Below are positions 10,059-33,701 of a stretch of DNA of 41,788 nucleotides, one piece after another. Position 1 is the stretch's first letter. Each line of letters opens with the position of its first letter. The notes under the pieces are model-generated. The model made no database searches. It had not been told where the DNA came from and saw nothing but the letters and a program-made list of their open reading frames with translations. A program made the position numbers and the translations under genes. The DNA is from a virus. The stretch is taken from IMG/VR virus record IMGVR_UViG_3300029531_000014; one strand, 5' to 3'.

Positions 10059-11291
10059 TCACCTCTCCCACAGTGGGATATATTGCTGTTGTCCCGCCTT
10101 GCGCACCTTATGCCGAAGAATGGTCATTGTGAAGTAACGTATATCATCCATGGCGTGGTCGTTCTCCTTGATCGGCTTGTCCTCCGTGGATTTTTCATCC
10201 CAGCGATACAAGCCGAACTCCCGGATCGCGTCTTTGCAGCTCCGATATACCTTGATCGTCCCGTCTTGGATATATCGGGCCGTAGTAGCAATCCCCGGAA
10301 TCACATCATTGACTGCCTTTTGTACCCTGAACCTCTTGTGCCGCCGGATGACCTCAATAAACGATGCTGCCGACGGGTCAATGACAACGGACTTCACTGG
10401 CAAATCACCAGCCAGCTTTTCCAGTTCAATATAATATTCCTCGTCGGTCTTGTTACTGCGTTCATCCCGCCCCGAGTAGTAGTATTCCCGCACCCGCGTA
10501 GCCACCTTGCCATTCCAGCACCACAGTCCAGCGGAAAATGGGTTTAATGTGCCATAGTCACAGGACATATAATACTCACCACTCTCCGGCACCTCGTCCG
10601 TAATGTTTCTCTCATCAAACATAGGATACACCAGCCCCTCCGCCACAACCCACAACCCTCTAATGAACCGATCATAAAACACACCGGAGAACATGGATTC
10701 ATACTGCTCAATGACCTTCTCCGTCAGCCCTGGGTTATCTCGCATGGTGAAGTGGAGATACAACGCATTTCTTTCATCATGCTTCTTAATCCATTCCAGA
10801 TAAAACCAATGCTGCGGGCTTTCTGGGTTGCAGGAGAACCATTTCTTGTTCCCATCCACAGAACAACGCGCCAGGGCCTGTTCCACGAAGGAACGGGGCA
10901 TAAGCGCAACCTCATCCAATAGAACACCTGCCAGCGTTCGCCCTTGGATCAGTGCCGCGCTGCTTTCATCCTTGCCGCCAAACACCTCAAACCAATTTGT
11001 CGTAGTTCCCCGGCGCACCTCAAGGATCTTCTCTGACCGGCGCCAACGCATGGTATACTTTTCTTTTGCCAGCGTCATAGCTGTGAAAGGGACAATAATA
11101 TTCTTTGAGCATGAATCAACGGTTTTCCCACAAATACCAAACCGCTGACCAGAGAAGTTTTCCATGGCCCAGCGAACAAACGCCCACATCATGATAGAGG
11201 TTTTGCCTGATCGGACTGCACCATCGCAGATAATGGCATCATATTTGGAGTATGGGAATGCAAGGATTTTCTTTTGTTGTGGACTAATCAT
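10059..11291 (-). CDS. terL: Terminase large subunit (PBSX / Terminase_3-like)
   Basis: Walker A motif DGAVRSGKTS, plus LLDE and a C-terminal nuclease region. The ATG overlaps the terS end. Confidence 0.9.
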   Translation of the reverse strand: MISPQQKKILAFPYSKYDAIICDGAVRSGKTSIMMWAFVRWAMENFSGQRFGICGKTVDSCSKNIIVPFTAMTLAKEKYTMRWRRSEKILEVRRGTTTNWFEVFGGKDESSAALIQGRTLAGVLLDEVALMPRSFVEQALARCSVDGNKKWFSCNPESPQHWFYLEWIKKHDERNALYLHFTMRDNPGLTEKVIEQYESMFSGVFYDRFIRGLWVVAEGLVYPMFDERNITDEVPESGEYYMSCDYGTLNPFSAGLWCWNGKVATRVREYYYSGRDERSNKTDEEYYIELEKLAGDLPVKSVVIDPSAASFIEVIRRHKRFRVQKAVNDVIPGIATTARYIQDGTIKVYRSCKDAIREFGLYRWDEKSTEDKPIKENDHAMDDIRYFTMTILRHKVRKAGQQQYIPLWER

Positions 11292-11732: not shown

Positions 11733-11806
11733 TGGTGGTTCCTCTTGGAATCGAACCAAGGCCCGGCAGTTATGAGCTGCCTGCTCGACCTTCGAGCTAA
11801 AGAACC
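11733..11806 (-). tRNA. tRNA with anticodon CAU (Met, or Ile2 if lysidine-modified), CCA encoded
   Basis: Hand-folded 74-nt cloverleaf: GGTTCTT-TA-GCTC-GAAGGTC-GAGC-A-GGCAG-CTCATAA-CTGCC-GGGC-CTTGG-TTCGATT-CCAAG-AGGAACC-A-CCA. G1-C72 are paired, so it is not an initiator type. Confidence 0.85.
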
Positions 11807-25559: not shown

Positions 25560-25696
25560 GTCGACTCCTCCTTTTCGACTTTATATAAATAATAGAACGG
25601 TTGTTCGATATTTGCAAGTGAAACTATCCGACAGATATCGACGTTAGTCCATAGATTGGGCTACGTGATATATAAAAATAATTGGAGGTATCCATC

Positions 25697-26200
25697 ATGG
25701 AGACAAAAGAGAAAAAGAAAAAGGGAAAAGCAAAGTGGATCGTTTTAGCCGTTGTCGTTGTTATCATAATTGCTGCTATCGCTGGCGGCGGCAATGATAA
25801 TACGCCCCAAACTCCCTCAAATGAAGATCCCGTTGCCACTTCAGAACAGCCGGCGAGCAACCAGGAAACATCGGAAGAGAAAAAAGATGCAGATGTCCCC
25901 ACAGAGTACAAAAATGCGCTAAAGAAAGCCGAGACATATAGCAAAACAATGCACATGTCAAAGCAAGGAATCTATGATCAGCTTGTGTCTGAATACGGAG
26001 AAAATTTCCCGCCAGAGGCTGCTCAATATGCTATTGATAATCTGGAAGCCGACTACAAGGCAAATGCGCTTGAGAAGGCGAAGACATACTACGAAACAAT
26101 GAATATGTCAAAGGAAGGTGTCCGGGATCAGCTCGTTTCTGAATACGGAGAAAAATTTACGCAGGAAGAAGCCGATTATGCCGTAAACAACCTTGAATGA
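25697..26200 (+). CDS. Ltp-family surface protein (superinfection exclusion type), TM-anchored, two Ltp repeats
   Basis: Two copies of the pattern KNALKKAETYSKTMHMSKQGIYDQLVSEYGENF...AQYAIDNLE / ANALEKAKTYYETMNMSKEGVRDQLVSEYGEKFTQEEADYAVNNLE. Confidence 0.8.
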   Translation: METKEKKKKGKAKWIVLAVVVVIIIAAIAGGGNDNTPQTPSNEDPVATSEQPASNQETSEEKKDADVPTEYKNALKKAETYSKTMHMSKQGIYDQLVSEYGENFPPEAAQYAIDNLEADYKANALEKAKTYYETMNMSKEGVRDQLVSEYGEKFTQEEADYAVNNLE

Positions 26201-26322
26201 ATAAAAATATTCCTTTAAGAAATGAATCCCGATGCAGGAACGGGCAGTGTTCAATATTTCCCGTTCCTGCTCGGAAGGAATAATATGGGTTGTTCAAGGT
26301 GACACGATTGGAGGTATTCTGT

Positions 26323-26814
26323 ATGCCTATTTTCACAAGCAAAGACAAGGATAAAAATAGAAGCGTAAATTTTATGGCGGTTGATGGATTGCCGGAATAT
26401 CAGTTGGGAGATGCAATCAATGCAACTATTGTAAAAAACGAAAACGTCTTACGGATTAAAGCAAGAGTCTTCAAGCGCCCTATTATTAACTTACCGATCA
26501 ACAAAATTCTTTCTGCTGTTTTTGCTTCTGAAACGGAGATTTTAGAAAAAGATAAAAGCGTTATTGGCCGCGCAGCGGTTGGGACTCTTCTTCTTGGTCC
26601 TTTGGGAACTATCGTCGGAGGTATGTCAGGGATCGGCGCAAAGCACAAGCGAGAAATAAAGAACTTTTTGTTGATCTCTTACGCTGGCGAAGATGAAGAG
26701 AAAACGATTGTCTTTGAAGTAGTTGGGGCCTCCATTGGATGGGCAAAGTTCTTAAAAGAACTGAACGCCCTTATTCCAAACAAACCAGAACAAAAAACAT
26801 CAATCACATTATGA
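26323..26814 (+). CDS. Hypothetical protein with central glycine-zipper segment
   Basis: GRAAVGTLLLGPLGTIVGGMSGIGA. ATG 26323 follows GGAGGTATTCTGT. Confidence 0.6.
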   Translation: MPIFTSKDKDKNRSVNFMAVDGLPEYQLGDAINATIVKNENVLRIKARVFKRPIINLPINKILSAVFASETEILEKDKSVIGRAAVGTLLLGPLGTIVGGMSGIGAKHKREIKNFLLISYAGEDEEKTIVFEVVGASIGWAKFLKELNALIPNKPEQKTSITL

Positions 26815-26919
26815 AAAATCCGCCCCCGGTGTTGGCGCACCGAGGACGGTTGTAGAAGGGAAGATGCTTTGCAAGGGCTATCTTCCCTTCTATTCTAACG
26901 AATGGAAGGAGTATTGTCA

Positions 26920-27990
26920 ATGTTATGTATCAAGTGCAAAAAAGAAATACCAGAATATTCTATCTTTTGCCCTTTATGCGGGAAAAAGCAGGTTGCCGAA
27001 AAAAGAAAAGCTTTGAAAAGAGCAAATGGAACAGGGACTGTATATAAGCTCCAGGGGCGCCGGAAACGGCCCTGGGTGGCCGCAAAGAACCGAGTAATAA
27101 TAGGATACTACGAAACTAAGACAAGTGCTATGGAGGCGTTAGAGGGATTATCAGGACGTAATCTGTCAGATCGGTATAACATGACGTTTGCCGAGGTGTT
27201 TGATGAGTGGAAGACGGAACACTACAAAGAAATAACCAAAAGTGGTATTTCCTCCTATGACAGGGCATTTGATATATTCGAAAAACTGCATAGGCGAAAA
27301 TTCCGGGATTTAAGAACTGTCGATTTTCAGTCGATTATAGACCAGCACATGGACAAAACACAATCAACCGTATCAAAGTATAAGCAACTCATTACCCAAA
27401 TGTCTCGATGGGCGATCCGGGAAGAAATTTGCACAACAAATTTTGCAAAGTTCGTCAAGGTTCCGGAACGTATAAAAAAAGAAAAAGACATTTTCACAGA
27501 AGAAGAAATCAAAAAATTAGAAGAAGATGGAAGCGAAGCAGCCAGGATAATTCTAATGCTTCTATCGACAGGAATGCGGATAGGAGAACTTTTTTCCCTC
27601 CCTCTGAATAGTTATCACAAAACATACGTGATCGGTGGATCAAAGACGGAGGCAGGACGAGGAAGGGTAATCCCCATCCGGCCAGAAGGGCGGAAGCACT
27701 TTGAATACTTTGCCGGACAAGCAACTGGGCCGCTCCTGCTCTCTGGGTATGTAGGAGAAAAGCGACTTGAGAATTACCGGAGACGCAATTATTATCCACT
27801 TCTAAAGCGTCTCGGTATTGAGCGGCATACTCCGCATGCAACCAGACACACTTACACATCAAGGGCGGTCAAGGAGGGGATGTCTCCTGAAGTGCTACAA
27901 AAAATTCTCGGCCACGCAGACTATTCCACGACAGCAAACGTCTATACTCACATCGACATTGACACACTGGTTGAGGCAGTCGAGCGTTAG
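26920..27990 (+). CDS. int: Tyrosine integrase with N-terminal zinc ribbon
   Basis: CIKCKKEIPEYSIFCPLCGKK at the N-terminus and HATRHTYTSRAV...LGHADYSTTANVYTH at the C-terminus. Adjacent to attP. Confidence 0.9.
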   Translation: MLCIKCKKEIPEYSIFCPLCGKKQVAEKRKALKRANGTGTVYKLQGRRKRPWVAAKNRVIIGYYETKTSAMEALEGLSGRNLSDRYNMTFAEVFDEWKTEHYKEITKSGISSYDRAFDIFEKLHRRKFRDLRTVDFQSIIDQHMDKTQSTVSKYKQLITQMSRWAIREEICTTNFAKFVKVPERIKKEKDIFTEEEIKKLEEDGSEAARIILMLLSTGMRIGELFSLPLNSYHKTYVIGGSKTEAGRGRVIPIRPEGRKHFEYFAGQATGPLLLSGYVGEKRLENYRRRNYYPLLKRLGIERHTPHATRHTYTSRAVKEGMSPEVLQKILGHADYSTTANVYTHIDIDTLVEAVER

Positions 27991-27994
27991 AAAT

Positions 27995-28006
27995 TTGTTA
28001 GTAACC
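27995..28006 (+). repeat. Direct repeat TTGTTAGTAACC (candidate integrase arm-type site, P arm)
   Basis: Identical 12-mer also found at 28212..28223, on the other side of the tRNA-like core. Confidence 0.5.
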
Positions 28007-28109
28007 GAAATCATCTTCTCTTAACTCTTCTTGTTTGAAGTAATAAAAAAACATTGAAAAATCAAGGAAAATCAACGTTATGTAATATAAAAAATGATTC
28101 GTATATATT

Positions 28110-28153
28110 TGACGTGCGGGAGGTCACAGGTTCAAGTCCTGTATCGTCCACCA
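28110..28153 (+). other. attP core candidate: 3' portion of a tRNA gene (T-arm, acceptor 3' strand, CCA)
   Basis: ...GGTCACAGG-TTCAAGT-CCTGT-ATCGTCC-A-CCA with no matching 5' half upstream (AT-rich there). It lies directly downstream of the integrase. Confidence 0.65.
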
Positions 28154-28191
28154 AAGAAAGCCCTGAAACCAAAAGGTTTCAGGGCTTTCTT
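28154..28191. terminator. 17-bp-stem terminator hairpin
   Basis: AAGAAAGCCCTGAAACC-aaaa-GGTTTCAGGGCTTTCTT, between the convergent integrase/tRNA remnant and the cargo operon. Confidence 0.75.
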
Positions 28192-28211
28192 TACTCTCTC
28201 CCGTTGCGAGA

Positions 28212-28223
28212 TTGTTAGTAACC
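28212..28223 (+). repeat. Direct repeat TTGTTAGTAACC (candidate arm-type site, P' arm)
   Basis: Identical to 27995..28006. Confidence 0.5.
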
Positions 28224-28234
28224 TGCATGTAACG

Positions 28235-28561
28235 TCACAGGTATCTTATTTTTCTCATTACTCCTTCATATACACGGGGATTAACAGTATGCAATGTGTC
28301 CATAAGGTCATCTATTATTTCCCATACAGCGTCCGGGTCCCTATTCTTCACCTCACAGAGGAAATCACTTTCCCCCCAGCGGGGAGGATCTGGGGAAGTA
28401 GAATGCCCTCCATCATAAGCAATAGGAACCGCCTTTCCTTCCTCCCGATCCATGCAGTCCCGGATAGTATAAAGGTTTGCCAGCTTGGCATAAGCCGGGT
28501 AGCTACTCTCCCCATACTCCAAACGGGCAATTTCAATATCTATTTCCTTGCGGTCAAGCAT
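28235..28561 (-). CDS. Hypothetical cargo protein
   Basis: 108 aa, MLDRKEIDIEIARLEYGESSYPAYAKLANLYTIRDCM... Last gene of the cargo operon. Confidence 0.6.
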   Translation of the reverse strand: MLDRKEIDIEIARLEYGESSYPAYAKLANLYTIRDCMDREEGKAVPIAYDGGHSTSPDPPRWGESDFLCEVKNRDPDAVWEIIDDLMDTLHTVNPRVYEGVMRKIRYL

Positions 28562-28573
28562 GGGGGCACCCCC

Positions 28574-28963
28574 TTACGCTTTCTCCAGCTGCTCCATAGC
28601 CCGGCGCAGGATTTCCTTTTCTCTTTCGTTGGCACCACTCATCATATCCTCAATCTGGTCCATCATGTGTTCTTTAGCATCGGTGCGGGAATACATGCGT
28701 CCATCCCGGCTATACCGGCCCATGGAATCCCGTTTCCGGCCACGGTAACTGGAGCCTCGTCCATAGGTGCCGCGCATATCGGCCTCCCAGTCACCAGCCC
28801 GGCTGTAATCGCCGTGTTCCTCCAGCATCTCAATCTTGTCCAGGTTTTTAATGGTATCAGTCAGCTTGTGGACGATCTCCAGGTCTCCGGCGCCCAACTC
28901 GCCCTTGCGAGCAATTTCCTTCAGCTCTTCGCAGAGCTTTTCTTTCAGTTCATGCATATACAT
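28574..28963 (-). CDS. Hypothetical protein with an Arg/Ser/Tyr/Gly-rich disordered centre
   Basis: ATG 28963 follows AAAGGAGAGTCAAT. Central segment RGTYGRGSSYRGRKRDSMGRYSRDGRMYSRTD. Confidence 0.6.
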   Translation of the reverse strand: MYMHELKEKLCEELKEIARKGELGAGDLEIVHKLTDTIKNLDKIEMLEEHGDYSRAGDWEADMRGTYGRGSSYRGRKRDSMGRYSRDGRMYSRTDAKEHMMDQIEDMMSGANEREKEILRRAMEQLEKA

Positions 28964-28976
28964 ATTGACTCTCCTT

Positions 28977-29399
28977 TCAGGCCACACGCTCAACGATCAG
29001 GTTAGCATTTTCAATCTCAATCGTCTCTGTGCTGGTATTTTTGACTGCCACAGTCACACAGCAGCCACGGGGAACCTCAATAAAGGCCGCAGCAAACACA
29101 TTGAAAAACTCGTCCACCGCGGCAGGGGTCACGATAGCAGTGGCGCTGCCCAATGCTTCACCTTCCACTGCAATAGCAATAGAGATAGGTCCAACTGCGC
29201 CGCCTGTGGGAATGGCAATATTGCCGCCAAATACAACTTTGTAGCGGGCTCGGCATTGATTTGTTATACCGCGCAAGGTAACGATGCCAGAACCATCTCT
29301 ATGTACAACACAATTAGATCCGCTCACGGGGGTCTCTGTAAATACGACATTCTGTCCCGCAGCCACTTGCTGCACAAATACGCCAGTAAATTCAGCCAT
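28977..29399 (-). CDS. BclA C-terminal-domain-like (C1q/TNF-like jelly roll) protein without collagen repeats
   Basis: ATG 29399 follows AAAGGAATGATCTT. It ends ...IEIENANLIVERVA, which resembles the BclA C-terminus ...SASIIIEKVA recalled from memory. Beta-rich. Confidence 0.55.
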   Translation of the reverse strand: MAEFTGVFVQQVAAGQNVVFTETPVSGSNCVVHRDGSGIVTLRGITNQCRARYKVVFGGNIAIPTGGAVGPISIAIAVEGEALGSATAIVTPAAVDEFFNVFAAAFIEVPRGCCVTVAVKNTSTETIEIENANLIVERVA

Positions 29400-29513
29400 A
29401 AGATCATTCCTTTCAAAAAAGATAGCGGCGAGGCTATTGCCCCGCCGCGCTTGTTCCAAAATCGGCACGGGGCCGAACATTCCGGTCATGCCGGAAAGTT
29501 GATGTATTAGGTT

Positions 29514-30248
29514 TTAGCAGCCGCAGCCACAGGGATTACACCCACAACCGGCATAAGGATTCGGGACCTGATAGGCCGGAACGGGCATGGGGTTGATGCG
29601 TCGGATCAGCTCATTGGTCTGCGCATCCAGAGTCGCTGTCAAATAGCTGTTCTGATTAGCCTGAGAGGCAGCCAGTTTCAGAGACTGGTTCTCGGCTTGC
29701 AGCGTTGTAATCTTGTCCTGGGTCAAGAAGTCAAGAATGGCTCGGCTGTTCGCATTGGCATTGTCAATGATATCCCTGGTGCTGTTCTGGATAGTGTTTC
29801 GAGTATCGCATGCCTGGGTGGCCATGTTATAATTCACACCATCAATAGCGCGCTGGGTATCGCAGCAACACTGAGCCATCTGTGCCCCCAAAGCATTAAA
29901 GCCCTGCTGCGTCTGATAACCAAGAGTACAAACGGCATTATCAACGCCATGGAATCCGTTACTCACTGCATCACGAATGGAATTCTGTCCATTCTGTAAA
30001 CCATTCAGAGCAAAGCCTTCGTTGATGTCGGCGCGAGTAGCCCAGCCCTGAAAGCCAGGGCCATTGGTACCACCGTTACCGCCAAAACCGCCACCGAAAC
30101 CGTTCCCCCAGCCAAACATGCCGAAGATCAGAAACAGGATAATCCAGGAGGCCCAATCTCCACCCCACATGGAATTACCATAACCGCCGCCCTGATAGGC
30201 AGGAGTTACTGGCATGGTCATCACAGTATTGTCCGAAGAAAGACTCAT
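29514..30248 (-). CDS. Gly-rich TM protein with coiled coil and Cys-rich C-terminal tail
   Basis: WASWIILFLIFGMFGWGNGFGGGFGGNGG..., an internal CCC, and a GCGCNPCGCGC ending. ATG follows AAAGGAGAAAAAACA. Confidence 0.65.
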   Translation of the reverse strand: MSLSSDNTVMTMPVTPAYQGGGYGNSMWGGDWASWIILFLIFGMFGWGNGFGGGFGGNGGTNGPGFQGWATRADINEGFALNGLQNGQNSIRDAVSNGFHGVDNAVCTLGYQTQQGFNALGAQMAQCCCDTQRAIDGVNYNMATQACDTRNTIQNSTRDIIDNANANSRAILDFLTQDKITTLQAENQSLKLAASQANQNSYLTATLDAQTNELIRRINPMPVPAYQVPNPYAGCGCNPCGCGC

Positions 30249-30363
30249 TGTTTTTTCTCCTTTGTAGATTTATTTTCAAAACCGTGGCCACGGATTTTGA
30301 TTGAAATTGAATTGCCCATACAATTATGATAAAATATTAGAAAATGTGATGAGGTGATATAGA

Positions 30364-30537
30364 TTGAAATGCTATTTTTGTAAAATATTTGATGGGAAGC
30401 AAAAGGCGTTTGGGAAACCGTGTTGCTCCATCTGCAAACAAACAATAGAAATAAATAGTAAATTTTGTGAAATTCAGGAAAGTATTGTAGACTCATTCAA
30501 AAAAATTGAAAAAAATCTAAATCGTGATGATCCTTAA
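30364..30537 (+). CDS. Possible small zinc-ribbon ORF (57 aa, TTG start)
   Basis: GAGGTGATATAGA-TTG. It reads LKCYFCKIFDGKQKAFGKPCCSICKQTIEINSKFCEIQESIVDSFKKIEKNLNRDDP and lies in an AT-rich gap. Confidence 0.3.
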   Translation: MKCYFCKIFDGKQKAFGKPCCSICKQTIEINSKFCEIQESIVDSFKKIEKNLNRDDP

Positions 30538-30646
30538 TACAGATTTCTTCCGATCTTGATTAAAGGAACATTCTAATTCGATGATTTAATATTCGAAAAA
30601 TACAATATGATATTAAGAAATAAAGACAATTTTCTCGTTCATTAAT

Positions 30647-30874
30647 TCACTTCCCAAACATCCCCCGCATCCTCTCGAACATTCCTTGCATCTGCTGGGC
30701 CTGTTTCTGGGCTGCATCCAGTTGGGATTGGGTGAGTTTGCCACTGGACACCAATTCGTTAATCATAGCGTTTGGGTCCTTGCCTTTCATTTGATTCATG
30801 AACTGCTGAAACTGCTGCATCATATTGGATTGGCTATTCCCGCCACCAAGAACTTGAAAAATCGGATTAGGCAT
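30647..30874 (-). CDS. Small Gln/Met-rich protein
   Basis: MPNPIFQVLGGGNSQSNMMQQFQQFMNQMKGKDP...AQKQAQQMQGMFERMRGMFGK. Confidence 0.6.
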   Translation of the reverse strand: MPNPIFQVLGGGNSQSNMMQQFQQFMNQMKGKDPNAMINELVSSGKLTQSQLDAAQKQAQQMQGMFERMRGMFGK

Positions 30875-31283
30875 TACTCTCGTCCTCCTTAGATCCCTGC
30901 TCTTTTGCAGGTTGTTTCTGCGCTGTCAGAGCGTCCAAGCGGGCAGCCAGAGCGGCTAATTCCTCTTTTGTGGCAAACTGAACAGACGATTCCTGCACGG
31001 ATTGTGAGGCTTTCTTGCCCCCCATACGTTCGGTATAATCAAATACTCGAAGAGGCATGGGCATCCCTGACGCATCAGTTGATTTGATATAAAACGTGGA
31101 GTTTTCACTGTCCATCAGCAAACGGTTTTCTCCTGGTGCAACTAAATACCCTTTTGCCCCTTCTTCCCCTTGCACCCAGATAATCCCATTTCCAGCTGTG
31201 TTTCCCTGTGGCGGAACCGGTTGTCCCTGCATAGGAGCTTGGAATGGCTGTTGCCCACGAAGCTGTGCAAGATGATCCGGCAC
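30867..31283 (-). CDS. Hypothetical protein with a Gln/Pro-rich N-terminus
   Basis: GIIWVQGEEGAKGYLVAPGENRLLMDSENSTFYIKSTDASGMPMPLRVFDY. The start is uncertain (GTG 31283, no clear SD). Confidence 0.5.
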   Translation of the reverse strand: MPDHLAQLRGQQPFQAPMQGQPVPPQGNTAGNGIIWVQGEEGAKGYLVAPGENRLLMDSENSTFYIKSTDASGMPMPLRVFDYTERMGGKKASQSVQESSVQFATKEELAALAARLDALTAQKQPAKEQGSKEDESNA

Positions 31284-31339
31284 AGGTGGCGGATAATATG
31301 GAGACTGATAGCTTGGATAATATTAATAAGCCATTTTTG

Positions 31340-31768
31340 TTATCCTTTCTCCCAAAAATATAAAACGATTTCATTTCCACTATCCCAAGTATCGTAAATG
31401 GTGCCGTCTTGCACGCAAACGACATGTCCAGATAGGGCAAGAATATAGGTCCCTTCGGGGTTCCCGTCTGCAAAGGAATTTACTGTTGTATCTTCCTCTG
31501 CCAGATTCCTTCGGTATCCATGCTCTCTGAGGTATGCCCCCCAAACATGATTTGCCGATGGCATATCTCCCATTTGATACCCTTGTAGCACAACTCCGAT
31601 ATATGTTTTTTCCCAGCTCTGTCCTAACGCTTTTGATAAAGCTCTTATTGTGCAATCCCCGACGTTTTTCTTTTCTGGATTCGGGTTGTAATAAACAAAC
31701 ATAAAACCACCTAAATAAAAAAGGATACAGTCCGCGCCTATTGGCCAGTGGTTATTTCCACTATTCAC
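31340..31768 (-). CDS. Hypothetical protein with candidate Cys/His (papain- or transglutaminase-like) residues
   Basis: GDCTIRALSKAL ... LSGHVVCVQDGTIYDTWD. GTG 31768 follows AAAGGAGGATGCA; the alternative start ATG 31702 gives MFVYYNPNP. Confidence 0.55.
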   Translation of the reverse strand: MNSGNNHWPIGADCILFYLGGFMFVYYNPNPEKKNVGDCTIRALSKALGQSWEKTYIGVVLQGYQMGDMPSANHVWGAYLREHGYRRNLAEEDTTVNSFADGNPEGTYILALSGHVVCVQDGTIYDTWDSGNEIVLYFWEKG

Positions 31769-31841
31769 TGCATCCTCCTTTAATTTTTATTCTATTGCAA
31801 TTCTTTCGCTAAAATGTTCATCCTAAATACAGGAAAAGCAC

Positions 31842-31868
31842 AAAAAAAGACCACCCAAAAGGGTGGTC
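31842..31868 (-). terminator. Rho-independent terminator after the regulator gene
   Basis: GACCACCC-tttt-GGGTGGTC followed by TTTTTTT on the minus strand. Confidence 0.7.
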
Positions 31869-32190
31869 AAAGTACATGGGAAATTTTCCGAAGTGATTCT
31901 CTGTGCCTCTCTTTAATTGTACGTTCGGAAAACCCAAGAGAATCACCGATATATCGAAAATCTTTTTTCTGAACATAATGCATCCTCAAAATAGCTTTGT
32001 CCTCATCATTCAGTGTGCATCGCGCTAAAACTGCATCAAATTCAGATACAAGCGGAATCGCTTTCAATGCTCGTCTTGTTTCAATGTGTCCTGGGCTTGA
32101 ATTTTGTTTCTGTGCCAGCAAATCAAAGAGGATTAAACATAATGCTTTACACTCTTCTAATTCGTTTACTGTTCCTTCTGGAATCTTCAT
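31867..32190 (-). CDS. Sigma-70 region-4-like / ArpU-RinA-like transcriptional regulator
   Basis: C-terminal HTH FRYIGDSLGFSERTIKERHRESLRKI. 107 aa. Confidence 0.5.
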   Translation of the reverse strand: MKIPEGTVNELEECKALCLILFDLLAQKQNSSPGHIETRRALKAIPLVSEFDAVLARCTLNDEDKAILRMHYVQKKDFRYIGDSLGFSERTIKERHRESLRKISHVL

Positions 32191-32273
32191 AAATCAAACT
32201 CCTCCATTTTCTGGTTAAAGAGGACTAACAGTTGACATATTTACAAATATGAATTATTCTTTGTATAAAGGGG

Positions 32274-32645
32274 ATGATCATTATACAAGCAAAAATCAAA
32301 GGAACACCTGCTTCTCTCCACGAGTCACTAAAAAAAGCAACAACAAGTATGTTGGTTCTTTTTCTGTTGCGTCAGAAACCTATGTACATTTATGAAATTA
32401 TGTCATCTATTTCAAAAATGAGTGACGGAAAAATTTCTTTTTGTACTCTATACGCTTTATCTAATAAACTTCAAAAATTAGGTTTTGTCCGTGTTGCATC
32501 TAAAGAAGTGAGTGAAGATAACAGAATCCGCGTATACTTGTCAATTACAGAAATAGGATTAGATTATCTTTCGGACTGTATTGCATCTTACAAAGATTTT
32601 AACCATGATATAAACGAAATACTTTCAACTGACGTCTTAAAATAA
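32274..32645 (+). CDS. PadR-family transcriptional regulator
   Basis: MLVLFLLRQKPMYIYEIMSSISKMSDGKISFCTLYALSNKLQKLGFV...NRIRVYLSITEIGLDYL. Confidence 0.7.
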   Translation: MIIIQAKIKGTPASLHESLKKATTSMLVLFLLRQKPMYIYEIMSSISKMSDGKISFCTLYALSNKLQKLGFVRVASKEVSEDNRIRVYLSITEIGLDYLSDCIASYKDFNHDINEILSTDVLK

Positions 32646-32674
32646 CCCCTCTGGATATATCCCAGAGGGGTTTT
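32646..32674. terminator. Bidirectional terminator between PadR and the endolysin
   Basis: CCCCTCTGG-atatat-CCCAGAGGGG followed by TTTT. Confidence 0.65.
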
Positions 32675-32699
32675 CCATTTACCTCTGAGCAAACATAAT

Positions 32700-33464
32700 T
32701 TACAGTAATCCTTTTCGCCCCAGCACTGCAATCACCTCATCCCGTTTCATGGGGCGCTCCGGGCTGGTGCCATCCACGATGCCATTTGCCACAGCCTTTG
32801 CCCAATGTCCCTCCTGTTGGGACCAGGCGGGCTCAGACAGCGTCTTCGCGTGGAGCTCTGCTTTCTGCATGAGCTGGTAGGCTTGTTCGTTGGTCATTTC
32901 AGAGATCAACTTTGCAATATCCATGGGTTCATCCTCTCCTTCCAGCCGCCGGTTGACCTCGGCGGCAATCTCTCCGTGCCGATTGTATAGATAATCCCCC
33001 GGGCAGGCCTTGGCGGCGAACCACCGGTGAACCGTCATATTCTGCTTGTCCGCCTGGCCGATCAAGGATTTATCCCCTTTCCACAGTAGTTTCTTGATCC
33101 CATTTCTCCGGCAGATATCCGTCAATAGGTCCAGCAATGCGGCGTAGGCTTTGTCTGACACCGGCCAATCCGGCGCCCCACCATTGTTGGCCACCTCAAT
33201 GGTGATGGCCCGATGATCGTTGGAGGCGCTGGAGGTACACCAGGACCGATTTGCTTCATCTACATATAAGGCAATCCGTCCGTCGCTTCCAATGCCGTAG
33301 TTGCTGCTGGCCTTGCGGGACGGGTCGGCAAACAAGGCCCCGCAAGTCTCTACGCTGGCATTGCCCGCCATGCAGTGGATGGAAACGGTGTCGATTACAT
33401 GGTTGCGCCGCCCGGAATGGTTAGGGGATCGTTTGGTGTAGGTTACAAGTGGGCTGTTACTCAT
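32700..33464 (-). CDS. Endolysin: N-acetylmuramoyl-L-alanine amidase (Amidase_2/PGRP type) with a C-terminal binding region
   Basis: VIDTVSIHCMAG...SSNYGIGSDGRIALYVDE...AITIEVAN...AKACPG. ATG follows GGAGTGAGGAGTGG. Confidence 0.85.
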   Translation of the reverse strand: MSNSPLVTYTKRSPNHSGRRNHVIDTVSIHCMAGNASVETCGALFADPSRKASSNYGIGSDGRIALYVDEANRSWCTSSASNDHRAITIEVANNGGAPDWPVSDKAYAALLDLLTDICRRNGIKKLLWKGDKSLIGQADKQNMTVHRWFAAKACPGDYLYNRHGEIAAEVNRRLEGEDEPMDIAKLISEMTNEQAYQLMQKAELHAKTLSEPAWSQQEGHWAKAVANGIVDGTSPERPMKRDEVIAVLGRKGLL

Positions 33465-33513
33465 CCACTCCTCACTCCTTTCAAGCAGGACAAAAAGTCC
33501 CCGGCCTGTTCTC

Positions 33514-33541
33514 TTGACAAACCAGGGCGGGATGGTATAAT
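33514..33541 (+). promoter_or_regulatory. Plus-strand consensus promoter TTGACA-16-TATAAT with TGn
   Basis: TTGACAaaccagggcgggaTGGTATAAT. It faces into the minus-strand lysis operon. Confidence 0.6.
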
Positions 33542-33547
33542 GAAAAA

Positions 33548-33645
33548 CAGAAAGGGCGCTGCTACAAGCGGTTTAGCCCGTGCAAGTTAAGAGATCAAAG
33601 CAAAAGCCTTGAAACCGTCACTTGGCCGAGTGGCGGTTTCTGCCT
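33548..33645 (+). ncRNA. Candidate antisense RNA (may extend to the 33855 terminator)
   Basis: Runs from the promoter above to hairpin 33611..33640. It has no ATG-initiated ORF downstream of the predicted start, and its 5' end is homologous to the opposite-strand leader. Confidence 0.4.
33611..33640. terminator. Shared 11-bp hairpin between the convergent promoters
   Basis: GAAACCGTCAC-ttggccga-GTGGCGGTTTC with moderately U-rich tails in both orientations. Confidence 0.5.
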
Positions 33646-33701
33646 TTAATGCGAATCGTTACGGTATATCCAAAGATATGTAACGTAATCGTAATGGGCA
33701 T
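33618..33701 (-). CDS. 27-codon ORF with a strong sequestered SD (candidate type I toxin-like peptide)
   Basis: AGGAGGTGAGGCCC-ATG gives MPITITLHIFGYTVTIRIKGRNRHSAK. The SD is paired in CCUCC-GAAA-GGAGG and the stop lies inside the shared hairpin. Confidence 0.4.
   Translation of the reverse strand: MPITITLHIFGYTVTIRIKGRNRHSAK

Follow-up and report, generated by a model that had tools for sequence, protein, structure and literature searches.

The 41,788-nt viral sequence IMGVR_UViG_3300029531_000014 (IMG/VR), referred to at its full length as the window, represents the circularly permuted genome of a temperate phage. At positions 28235–30248 it carries four minus-strand open reading frames (ORFs), herein termed A, B, C and D, which an earlier note, made from the sequence alone, had described as a separate four-gene cargo operon next to the phage attachment site (attP), encoding proteins that resemble those of the spore surface. 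Each of the sequence features listed at that time is present, and the four ORFs are real genes: A and B each have thousands of homologues, and A is found with 100 % identity on at least 964 public contigs (P0122, which matches A identically across the whole alignment, is recorded on 964, one of which is labelled Evtepia gabavorous). The proposed extent of the operon, however, does not hold, as three further genes, u142, u138 and u75, precede A on the same strand in a conserved order. A–D are, therefore, the distal part of a five- to seven-gene cassette, u142-u138-u75-A-B-C-D, the core of which is u138-u75-A-B-C.

Organization and conservation of the cassette

The proteins of the window were compared by tblastn with 91 fetched loci, comprising phage records and 80 loci from bacterial and archaeal assemblies sampled at one genome per species. 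B was detected in 88 of these 91 and, amongst the 88, A lies directly upstream of B in 86 and C downstream of B in 63, with u138 and u142 present in 60 and 59, respectively. The small u75, directly upstream of A, is found in 37, and D, which follows C, in 28, including Butyrivibrio virus Ceridwen and Dulem virus 33. Wherever the genes are present their order is invariable, with the upstream genes correctly arranged in approximately 60 of the 88 loci. For a diverged group (L092–L095, L103 and L027) tblastn detects only A and B; inspection of these loci reveals the same order, namely a u138-like protein (hhalign E-value 1.4e-4), a Q/M-rich protein of 66–78 aa, A, B, and a longer C-like protein with a layout of helix, R/Y/G/D-rich centre and helix. 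Two integrated copies, L097 and L099 (5900–7950), are without u142 and the sigma-like gene that precedes it in the window, and have u138 cut to 84 aa; u75 and A–D are intact in both, with A being 100 % identical to that of the window. The upstream part may have decayed, or the distal genes may have been retained by selection.

In the window, u75 and A are separated by an AT-rich intergenic stretch of 398 bp (30249–30646, no strand), which was considered as the promoter or regulatory region of a separate operon. This candidate was rejected upon alignment with L098 and L100, as the stretch contains a polymorphic insertion of ~340 bp that is present in the window and in L096, and absent from the otherwise near-identical L098 and L100. 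The gap is 57 bp in L097–L100, and because it has this length in most copies, A is not an operon start. A scan of the region for sigma-70-like promoters returned 14 sites against 9.1 ± 3.4 expected, none of which is convincing before A or u142, and a motif search upstream of u142 in 52 loci, using 6- to 8-mer counts, recovered terminator T-runs only. The nearest terminator-like hairpin upstream of A–D, which is followed by a T-run, is located at 31849–31868 (minus strand), after the sigma-like gene and before u142; a similar hairpin and T-run precedes u142 in L020, L023, L026, L033, L037 and L042.

Protein A

A (29514–30248, minus strand) encodes 244 aa and matches phrog_16490 at 2e-92. As described previously, it possesses a Gly-rich N-terminus, a hydrophobic segment (WASWIILFLIFGMFGW), an internal QCCCDT and a Cys-rich tail (AGCGCNPCGCGC). 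Its overall architecture comprises an acidic Gly-rich N-tail, an anchor at residues 33–48, a Gly-rich linker, a helix at 81–218, a PxPxY..NP motif and the terminal GCGCNPCGCGC. An AlphaFold2 model built with 67 diverse family representatives, with a mean predicted local distance difference test score (pLDDT) of 71.5 and a predicted template modelling score (pTM) of 0.35, predicts a disordered acidic Gly-rich tail for residues 1–30, a short helix for 34–45, a disordered Gly-rich linker for 46–80, a single unbroken helix for 81–218 (pLDDT 72–97 over residues 91–230, and >90 for 151–220) and a disordered Pro/Cys-rich tail for 219–244. In both the window protein and the family profile, the long helix displays a hydrophobic periodicity of 3.64–3.66 residues, which is the hendecad value. 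Conservation is centred on the cysteines: the CCC motif (127–129) is invariant in 72 sequences, CCC together with the Cys-rich tail occurs in 77 of 77 homologues, and C147, S195, Q196, Q199, P222, P231 and the tail cysteines are near-invariant. Lysine and arginine residues average 0.4 before the hydrophobic segment and 0.8 after it, which weakly suggests, at the level of sequence, that the N-terminus lies outside and the stalk in the cytoplasm.

A phmmer search (E-value ≤ 1e-3) of 1.84 billion representatives places the A family in 1,596 clusters at 50 % identity; the 150 of these 1,596 that were listed span 79–340 aa, with none longer and no fusions amongst them. A search of the PDB with the A profile yielded no significant match, the rows for the influenza HA2 fusion peptide and helix having E-values of 0.3–1. 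These rows are put down to Gly-rich and coiled-coil composition, and they probably explain the 'spike glycoprotein' label found in crAss annotations.

Protein B and its fold

B encodes 140 aa (28977–29399, minus strand) from a conserved start, M31 of a 170-aa ORF (28977–29489), which is also the start used by gene callers; the extra 30 codons are not conserved. The reported C-terminal end, ENANLIVERVA, is present, and its ...IVERVA resembles the ...IIIEKVA that ends BclA. An alignment of 73 homologues at 59–94 % identity, for which a profile search was needed to pass near-identical sequences, was used to generate an AlphaFold2 model, and this is all-beta with a pLDDT of 86.2 and a pTM of 0.79. 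Foldseek comparison of this model with the PDB returned as best match the C-terminal domain of F-BclA (F-BclA-CTD) at the tip of the F-ENA fibre of Bacillus thuringiensis (9h38; E-value 4e-7, template modelling (TM) score 0.72–0.75, 15–17 % identity), followed by ExsFA (7r5i) and BxpB (8d02) at an E-value of 1e-5, a TM score of ~0.7 and 10–12 % identity. EDA-A1, 4-1BBL and C1q came next, with 103 PDB chains in total at E-values ≤ 1e-3, and a domain of the short tail fibre of cyanophage A-1(L) (8ke9) was also matched. F-BclA-CTD has itself been described as a trimeric TNF-like jelly-roll close to that of BclA (1WCK) (PMC12357932). In the BFVD, the best matches are stand-alone proteins of 130–142 aa from gut sipho-, podo- and myovirus contigs, one of which is named 'BclA protein', and these are followed by C1q- or collagen-tipped proteins of phages and giant viruses. 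On the basis of the predicted structure, B is a stand-alone TNF/C1q-like jelly-roll with the fold of the BclA C-terminal domain.

The resemblance to BclA that had been noted from the sequence is thus sustained at the level of fold, whilst at the level of sequence it is not: no Pfam or NCBIfam match was obtained at E-values ≤ 0.1, and neither phmmer nor a nine-sequence profile retrieved any BclA, Exs or C1q chain from the PDB. Collagen repeats are lacking, as previously stated, with the 140-aa protein beginning at its first beta-strand and containing no GXX repeats, and an N-terminal exosporium-targeting leader is likewise absent. The structure search therefore assigns B to a BclA-type TNF/C1q fold rather than to an unrelated one; this fold is shared with phage fibre tips (8ke9 and C1q-domain phage proteins). 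A Cys113–Cys114 pair is present in 76 of 77 homologues.

Proteins C and D and the upstream partners

C (28574–28963, minus strand; 129 aa as used by gene callers, with the ORF extending to 28993 and 139 aa) partially matches phrog_28802 and consists of an N-terminal helix, a low-complexity R/S/Y/G/D centre and a C-terminal helix. The composition described earlier is clearly recognizable, with R, S, Y, G and D making up 70 % of the centre and 60–96 % of the richest 50-aa window across the family. Repeats within the family include GYSRD, RRDSMGRYS and HYVRGHYSRD, and the length of the run is variable. The likeness to CotG is confined to this composition, as no match to CotG or to another coat family was found in Pfam, NCBIfam or the PDB, and C has no match of any kind in these three databases. 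The cassette ends with D (28235–28561, minus strand; 108 aa), which has no match amongst PHROG, Pfam or NCBIfam families and harbours the conserved motif ygdSdFl...W.vmDELM.tL.v.npr.Y..VmRkl.

Upstream, u142 (31340–31699, minus strand; 119 aa from its ATG, with the ORF extending to 31768; phrog_3754) is the first gene of the cassette. Residues D15, C16, H92 and D103 are invariant in 49 homologues, and the presence of Cys, His and Asp in canonical order makes u142 a putative papain-like enzyme. Its homologues occur in Tsamsa-like phages of Bacillus (where they are annotated as 'putative peptidase'), Lak megaphages and PAK_P1-like phages of Pseudomonas, such that u142 is a generic phage gene that often heads the cassette; a Pfam scan of the 49 members found no family matched by more than one, and a profile search of the PDB was empty. 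For u138 (30867–31283, minus strand; phrog_21718), a conserved N-terminal region, WV..G...A..Y.V.P...L.D....FY.K....G.P, is followed by a C-terminal region, and in INPHARED the family is confined to records that also match A or B, where those records are listed. No PDB match was found for u138, and nothing recurrent emerged from a per-member Pfam scan of 55 homologues. The Q/M-rich u75 (30647–30874, minus strand; 75 aa; phrog_22984) has a 66-aa counterpart in the same place in Ceridwen and L092.

Overall, six of the seven cassette proteins belong to PHROGs without assigned function, D belongs to none, and none is in Pfam or NCBIfam. Scans of all cassette proteins with Pfam, NCBIfam and PADLOC produced nothing significant, and weak matches to ZorA, Fcf1 and DUF families were dismissed as noise. 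No evident signal peptide was seen in C, D, u138 or u75 upon inspection of the sequences by eye, a predictor not having been run, and megablast of the region against phage records returned no match.

Distribution, hosts and genomic settings

A total of 147 relatives of B were confirmed across 185,579 species genomes, from which the 80 loci were fetched. Wherever flanking genes could be identified, in these and in the phage-record loci, they are phage genes, and none of the 88 B loci was seen to lie in a sporulation locus. The carriers are gut Clostridia, classes that include spore-formers, and encompass Oscillospiraceae, Lachnospiraceae, Ruminococcus, Acutalibacteraceae and Butyricicoccus, as well as metagenome-assembled genomes (MAGs) labelled Subdoligranulum, Faecalibacterium and Agathobacter, with host labels of metagenome bins, and of archaeal viruses, given as written in the records. 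The latter three genera are generally described as non-sporulating; homologues do occur in non-sporulating hosts, although not exclusively there. Phage-sized cassette contigs of 20–57 kb were also seen in MAGs of Collinsella, Alistipes, Alloprevotella, Akkermansia and Candidatus Cryptobacteroides, along with an 8-kb contig in Paludibacteraceae, one of 139 kb in Methanobrevibacter and one of 4 kb labelled Dialister hominis (P0193; L014, L015, L037, L039, L052, L054, L076 and L084). Binning or contamination, and not genuine host range, probably accounts for these odd labels.

The cassette is found in three genomic settings. At least 15 loci, mostly of Oscillospiraceae type and including the window, display the order lysin, cassette, attP/integrase. 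At least 16 loci, mostly of Lachnospiraceae type and including the complete genome of Dulem virus 35, have the cassette on one strand between the gene for a MuF-like minor head protein and those for the scaffold and major capsid proteins. In the third setting, represented by the group of L092, L103 and L027, integrase and attP are followed by the cassette and then by antirepressor-like and early genes, and both excised and integrated forms were recovered. The location between lysis genes and attP given in the earlier note is thus accurate for the window, as borne out by the amidase upstream, the integrase beyond attP and the comparison with the integrated copy L098. It is also moron-like, as had been proposed, given that only 82 bp separate the attP core from the stop codon of D, and that D is the final prophage gene in L098. 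A position at attP is shared by the window, Dulem virus 33, L011, L036, L042 and the L092 group.

Butyrivibrio fibrisolvens is a non-spore-former, and its virus Ceridwen, cultivable on strain DSM 3071, carries u142, u138, a u75-like ORF, A, B, C and D after its lysin. Only lytic growth has been seen for Ceridwen, which has no integrase and was judged by its authors to be probably virulent (PMC7372960).

The A family extends further than the remainder of the cassette. Members detected by tblastn occur in phages of Clostridium perfringens, in crAss-like Suoliviridae, in the Bacteroides uniformis phage C3_41T2LP and in two viruses assigned to Methanomassiliicoccales, and all share the same architecture, i.e. 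a Gly-rich region, an aromatic hydrophobic segment, GWGGNGFGG, CCC, PxPxY..NP and a GCGCG end. The crAss-like homologues are annotated as 'spike protein/glycoprotein' or 'viral fiber', and in cr52_1 (L004 133–2664) and in vir215 (L104 833–3967), a virus assigned to Methanomassiliicoccales, A is located just downstream of a tail-protein and reverse-transcriptase pair that constitutes a diversity-generating retroelement. In cr52_1, TAG is read as a sense codon, with in-frame TAGs in gp20–gp25. The gene after A in the crAss-like, Bacteroides and C. perfringens phages belongs to another family of small beta-rich proteins (125–180 aa), which is kept beside A in several crAss-like genomes, and for whose crAss-type members a sequence and profile search of the PDB was empty. 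Profile–profile comparison of u138 with crAss gp25 and C3_41 gp34, and of C with the DUF7841 protein cr52 gp22, gave probabilities of <1 %.

Proposed function of the cassette

The reading that we favour, to which we assign a probability of approximately 0.4, is that the cassette is a phage-intrinsic, late-expressed assembly in which an anchored helical stalk, A, carries a TNF-like knob, B; in its biological role, it probably serves the phage in lytic development and not the spores of the lysogen. Support comes from the occurrence of the complete cassette in the lytic Ceridwen on a non-sporulating host, its location within head-gene clusters at the loci of the second setting, and the presence of A in Bacteroidota phages and in viruses assigned to archaea. 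No relative of B was, moreover, encountered outside the cassette, the genes keep a fixed order, the vicinal cysteines of A and B are invariant, and the TNF/C1q fold belongs just as much to viral fibre knobs. The fixed order, the lytic carrier and the positions within head genes are also the reasons why the description of A–D as lysogenic-conversion cargo is not sustained.

Within such an assembly, A would oligomerise through its ~140-residue, ~20-nm helix to create a stalk, which the short Gly-flanked hydrophobic segment would anchor in the membrane; the acidic, K/R-free N-tail hints that the N-terminus may be outside and the stalk in the cytoplasm. B, itself potentially a trimer by analogy with TNF-like domains, would dock onto the C-terminal tail of A, which is invariant and rich in Pro and Cys, and the vicinal cysteines (CCC and GCGCxxCGCGC in A, CC in B) could lock this contact via disulfides or metal, the product being a split 'stalk plus knob' fibre. 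Given that they have no evident signal peptide, C, D, u138 and u75 might assemble with the fibre in the cytoplasm, whilst the putative Cys-His-Asp enzyme u142 may process or cross-link partners. Transcription would take place with or after the late genes, possibly under the adjacent small sigma-region-4 protein, and the finished structure could act at the envelope of the infected cell (in release or exclusion) or on the particle.

Several observations weigh against this scheme. Contact between A and B is inferred, and the cysteine motifs of both are invariant, leaving no co-variation to measure; expression timing is similarly deduced from gene position alone. The topology signal of A is weak (0.4 K+R before the segment and 0.8 after), and the segment is both short, at 12–16 residues, and modest in hydropathy, with a mean Kyte–Doolittle value of 2.0 for its best 15-mer, which makes a true transmembrane span uncertain. 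The cassette is beside attP, the classic moron position, in three phage lineages, and L097/L099 have kept A–D yet lost u142 and part of u138, which fits lysogen selection as well as decay. Lastly, the beta-rich family that follows A in other lineages displays no detectable similarity to B in profile–profile comparison (crAss and C. perfringens members, probability <1 %), and with a different partner in those lineages, the pairing of A with B may be lineage-specific. A broader proposal, which is tentative, would accommodate such partners: A stalks in viruses of Bacillota, Bacteroidota and Methanomassiliicoccales would each bear a beta-rich knob, locked by cysteines and built with the aid of the YSRDG-repeat protein and the Cys-His-Asp enzyme, for a step shared by infections across very different envelopes, be it envelope penetration or egress or the attachment of particles to gut glycans. 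Viruses of the gut, and perhaps of other habitats, would in such a split fibre have an assembly not described before, and the knob of Clostridia phages would have the BclA/TNF fold.

Amongst the alternatives, a virion-associated accessory fibre or cargo, with A, B and their partners built into the particle, is possible though doubtful. It might take the form of a head or tail decoration with a glycan-binding knob, or of internal proteins that are ejected along with the DNA, the hydrophobic segment and ~20-nm helix of A entering and spanning the host envelope. A particle component would explain the location of the cassette between MuF-like and scaffold/capsid genes in at least 16 loci, the proximity of A in cr52_1 and vir215 to retroelement-diversified tail proteins and virion structural genes, and the absence of evident signal peptides, by inspection, from the partners; the TNF/C1q fold is one typically found in fibre knobs, for example 8ke9 and C1q-domain tail proteins, and hosts with very different envelopes, all from the gut, suit a role of this kind. 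Less easily reconciled with it are a position that varies relative to the structural genes (after the lysin, after the integrase or within head genes), stand-alone B-like proteins in sipho-, podo- and myovirus contigs and hence no single tail type, and a hydrophobic anchor that is unusual for a decoration protein. It is unlikely that the cassette is an accessory of lysis or egress, in which A would function at the cytoplasmic membrane like a class-III holin (T4 T) or an i-spanin, under regulation by the other proteins. The phage is equipped with an r1t-type holin and an amidase already, most hosts are monoderm and would offer a spanin no outer membrane target, and the cassette contains neither a lipoprotein partner nor a lipobox protein; many relatives, in addition, have it in a head-gene cluster, and A matches phrog_16490 only, with no similarity to holin or spanin families. 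This is so despite the location after lysis genes in the window, Ceridwen, Dulem virus 33 and others, the placement of A in cr52_1 two genes downstream of a LysB/FtsL-like annotated gene, an A architecture of N-terminal anchor, long helix and conserved cysteines, and weak, non-significant profile matches to the HA2 fusion peptide and helix (E-value 0.3–1).

The spore-surface interpretation, i.e. a lysogenic-conversion module made in the mother cell that decorates the spore or cell surface of the lysogen, appears quite unlikely. It draws on the exosporium proteins F-BclA-CTD and ExsFA/BxpB as best structural matches of B, on vicinal cysteines, a Tyr/Arg/Ser-rich C and a possible papain-like cross-linker or protease that recall coat, exosporium and ENA assembly, and on the location at attP in the six loci or groups named above. 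The carriers, moreover, are gut Clostridia, A–D are kept in prophages without the upstream genes, and assembly in the mother cell would explain the absent signal peptides. Nevertheless, the whole cassette resides in the lytic, integrase-free Ceridwen of a non-spore-forming Butyrivibrio, the A family is found in crAss-like, Bacteroides and archaeal viruses, and at least 16 loci have the cassette inside head-gene clusters. It has late-gene orientation, with no promoter region of its own for A in most copies; carriers include MAGs of Faecalibacterium, Subdoligranulum and Agathobacter, generally held to be non-sporulating; and B has neither a collagen stalk nor an exosporium leader, with no sequence match to BclA, CotG or Exs families. 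It is very unlikely that the cassette serves superinfection exclusion or anti-defence at the membrane of a lysogen or an infected cell. Temperate and lytic phages both encode exclusion systems, and a moron-like position in several lineages, together with a membrane-anchored protein paired with a binding domain, would fit one, but no cassette protein has a PADLOC match, strict seven-gene synteny and strong conservation over very different hosts would be unusual, and the window already contains a Sie-like lipoprotein (25682–26200).

Comparison with described systems

The closest structural relatives of B are found on Bacillus spores. BclA and F-BclA-CTD, of the exosporium nap and the F-ENA tip fibrillum of the B. 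cereus group (1WCK and 9h38), share with B a TNF-like jelly-roll of ~135–140 residues, whereas B, at 15–17 % identity, is a separate 140-aa polypeptide encoded beside a helical anchor protein in phages. ExsFA/BxpB, which anchors BclA in the exosporium basal layer, is a stand-alone TNF-like domain of a size near that of B, and differs in showing 10–12 % identity and no sequence match, with B being located in a phage cassette whose hosts include non-sporulating species. In PRD1 P5, the adenovirus fibre, reovirus sigma1 and the C1q-tipped collagen-like fibres of phages, a long oligomeric shaft bears a TNF-like or C1q-like jelly-roll knob at its far end. Shaft and knob would, in contrast, be separate gene products in A and B, which we infer to be in contact, and the shaft in A is one alpha-helix of hendecad periodicity, with a hydrophobic anchor in place of a capsid-binding N-terminus. 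The lambda i-spanin Rz and the T4 holin T possess an N-terminal membrane anchor, a large helical soluble domain and conserved cysteines. A has an anchor, a helical domain and cysteines in common with these, and is near lysis genes in several phages, but is without sequence similarity to them or an outer-membrane lipoprotein partner, has mostly monoderm hosts, and is often encoded, with its cassette, among head genes. CotG of B. subtilis shares with C only a low-complexity, repeat-rich Arg/Ser/Tyr centre; the repeats of C also contain Asp and Gly, its helical ends are conserved, and it has a fixed place in a phage cassette.

PHROGs already cover the individual families, so there is no novelty in the sequences themselves. 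The novelty lies in delimiting the cassette and its three genomic settings, in recognizing that B is a BclA/TNF domain that stands alone in phages, in the architecture of A, with its single anchored helix, and its spread across phyla, and in the invariant vicinal cysteines; literature on prophages with exosporium, BclA or TNF-like proteins, and on Methanomassiliicoccales viruses, yielded no description of the cassette. Despite their abundance, with exact A on at least 964 public contigs and a family of ~1,600 clusters, these genes are labelled as of 'unknown function' or belong to no family. The BclA/TNF-fold knob, the single-helix anchored stalk and the invariant vicinal cysteines offer a first structural handle on them, and Ceridwen, as a cultivable carrier, opens a large piece of gut-virome dark matter to direct functional testing. 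The circulation of the BclA/ExsF fold, familiar from the spore surface of Bacillus, in a free-standing phage gene among anaerobic Clostridia also bears on the origin of exosporium and ENA tip domains. For annotation, there is a note of caution, in that adjacency to attP alone is insufficient to name lysogenic-conversion cargo.

Attachment site and flanking genes

The late genes of the window begin with the large terminase (10059–11291, minus strand), followed by the portal, the MuF-like minor head protein, the scaffold and the major capsid protein, all on the minus strand, and continue across the window end to the tail genes and an Amidase_2 lysin (32700–33464) upstream of the cassette. An r1t-type holin precedes the amidase in copies of the same prophage. 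The terminase region is immediately preceded by a tRNA-Met(CAT) gene (11733–11806, minus strand). A PadR-like gene (32274–32645, plus strand) and the gene for a 107-aa sigma-70 region-4-like protein (31867–32190, minus strand; Pfam Sigma70_r4 at 1.4e-8, with a weak ArpU-family match) separate the amidase from the cassette. Homologues of the latter are found directly upstream of u142 in L023, L064 and L068, and it is a possible regulator linked to the cassette.

At the distal end, the 45-nt attP core (28109–28153, plus strand) is the 3′ part of a tRNA-Val(GAC) gene and ends in CCA. A perfect hairpin with a 17-bp stem (28154–28192, no strand) abuts this CCA end and is kept beside D in the integrated L098; it probably terminates both the tRNA-Val gene reconstituted on integration and, from the other side, the cassette. 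The window and L098 are colinear through D and the hairpin, and diverge inside tRNA-Val(GAC) (L098 10096–10172), such that the prophage end reads A-B-C-D-hairpin followed by an intact tRNA-Val(GAC). Beyond attP are the tyrosine integrase (26902–27990, plus strand; Pfam Phage_integrase at 1e-16), which is convergent with the cassette, and the plus-strand lysogeny genes. L096, L097, L099 and L100 carry the same A–D genes as the window; in L096 and L099, as aligned, these abut a different tRNA 3′ end (...GGTTCAAATCCGCC...) beside a response-regulator/histidine-kinase operon (L096/L099 10010–10270, compared with L098 10010–10360 and window 27985–28240). Different attachment cores beside identical A–D genes indicate that the integration module has been exchanged. 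An Rfam search of 27000–33700 returned nothing below an E-value of 0.4.

Within the lysogeny module, beside the integrase, the Sie-like lipoprotein gene (25682–26200, plus strand) matches the superinfection-exclusion family phrog_4980 at 3e-60, and its neighbour (26290–26814, plus strand) encodes a 174-aa protein with no assigned function. These two are better candidates for expression in the lysogen than A–D.

Insertions within and around the cassette

The ~340 bp insertion before A is flanked by an imperfect 12-bp direct repeat (TGTTTGGGAAGT / TGTATGGGCAAT) and contains a 57-aa ORF with a CxxC...CxxC arrangement (30364–30537, plus strand) that has no Pfam match. A miniature mobile element is one possible identity for it, and what is left of a homing-endonuclease gene is another. 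Free-standing HNH/NUMOD4 (I-HmuI-like) homing-endonuclease genes, as identified by Pfam, are located immediately upstream of A in Dulem virus 33 and the Bacteroides phage C3_41T2LP (L003 6280–6831, minus strand; L005 3943–4563, plus strand). Such genes are expected next to conserved backbone genes, and their presence beside A is therefore counted in favour of a phage-intrinsic cassette, which seems to be a favoured landing site for selfish genes. Two mutually similar ORFs of no known family are found between B and C in Ceridwen and upstream of A in the C. perfringens phage CPD1 (L001 7518–8312; L002 5212–5835). In a Lachnospiraceae chromosome (CP143549.1; L028 6825–7940), a C-5 cytosine DNA methyltransferase gene (Pfam 2.9e-58) is situated between A and B, an insertion seen in the Lachnospiraceae-type prophages that have the cassette between MuF-like and scaffold genes. 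The same locus, L028, also harbours a 90-aa helix–turn–helix-like ORF, without a Pfam match, between u142 and u138.

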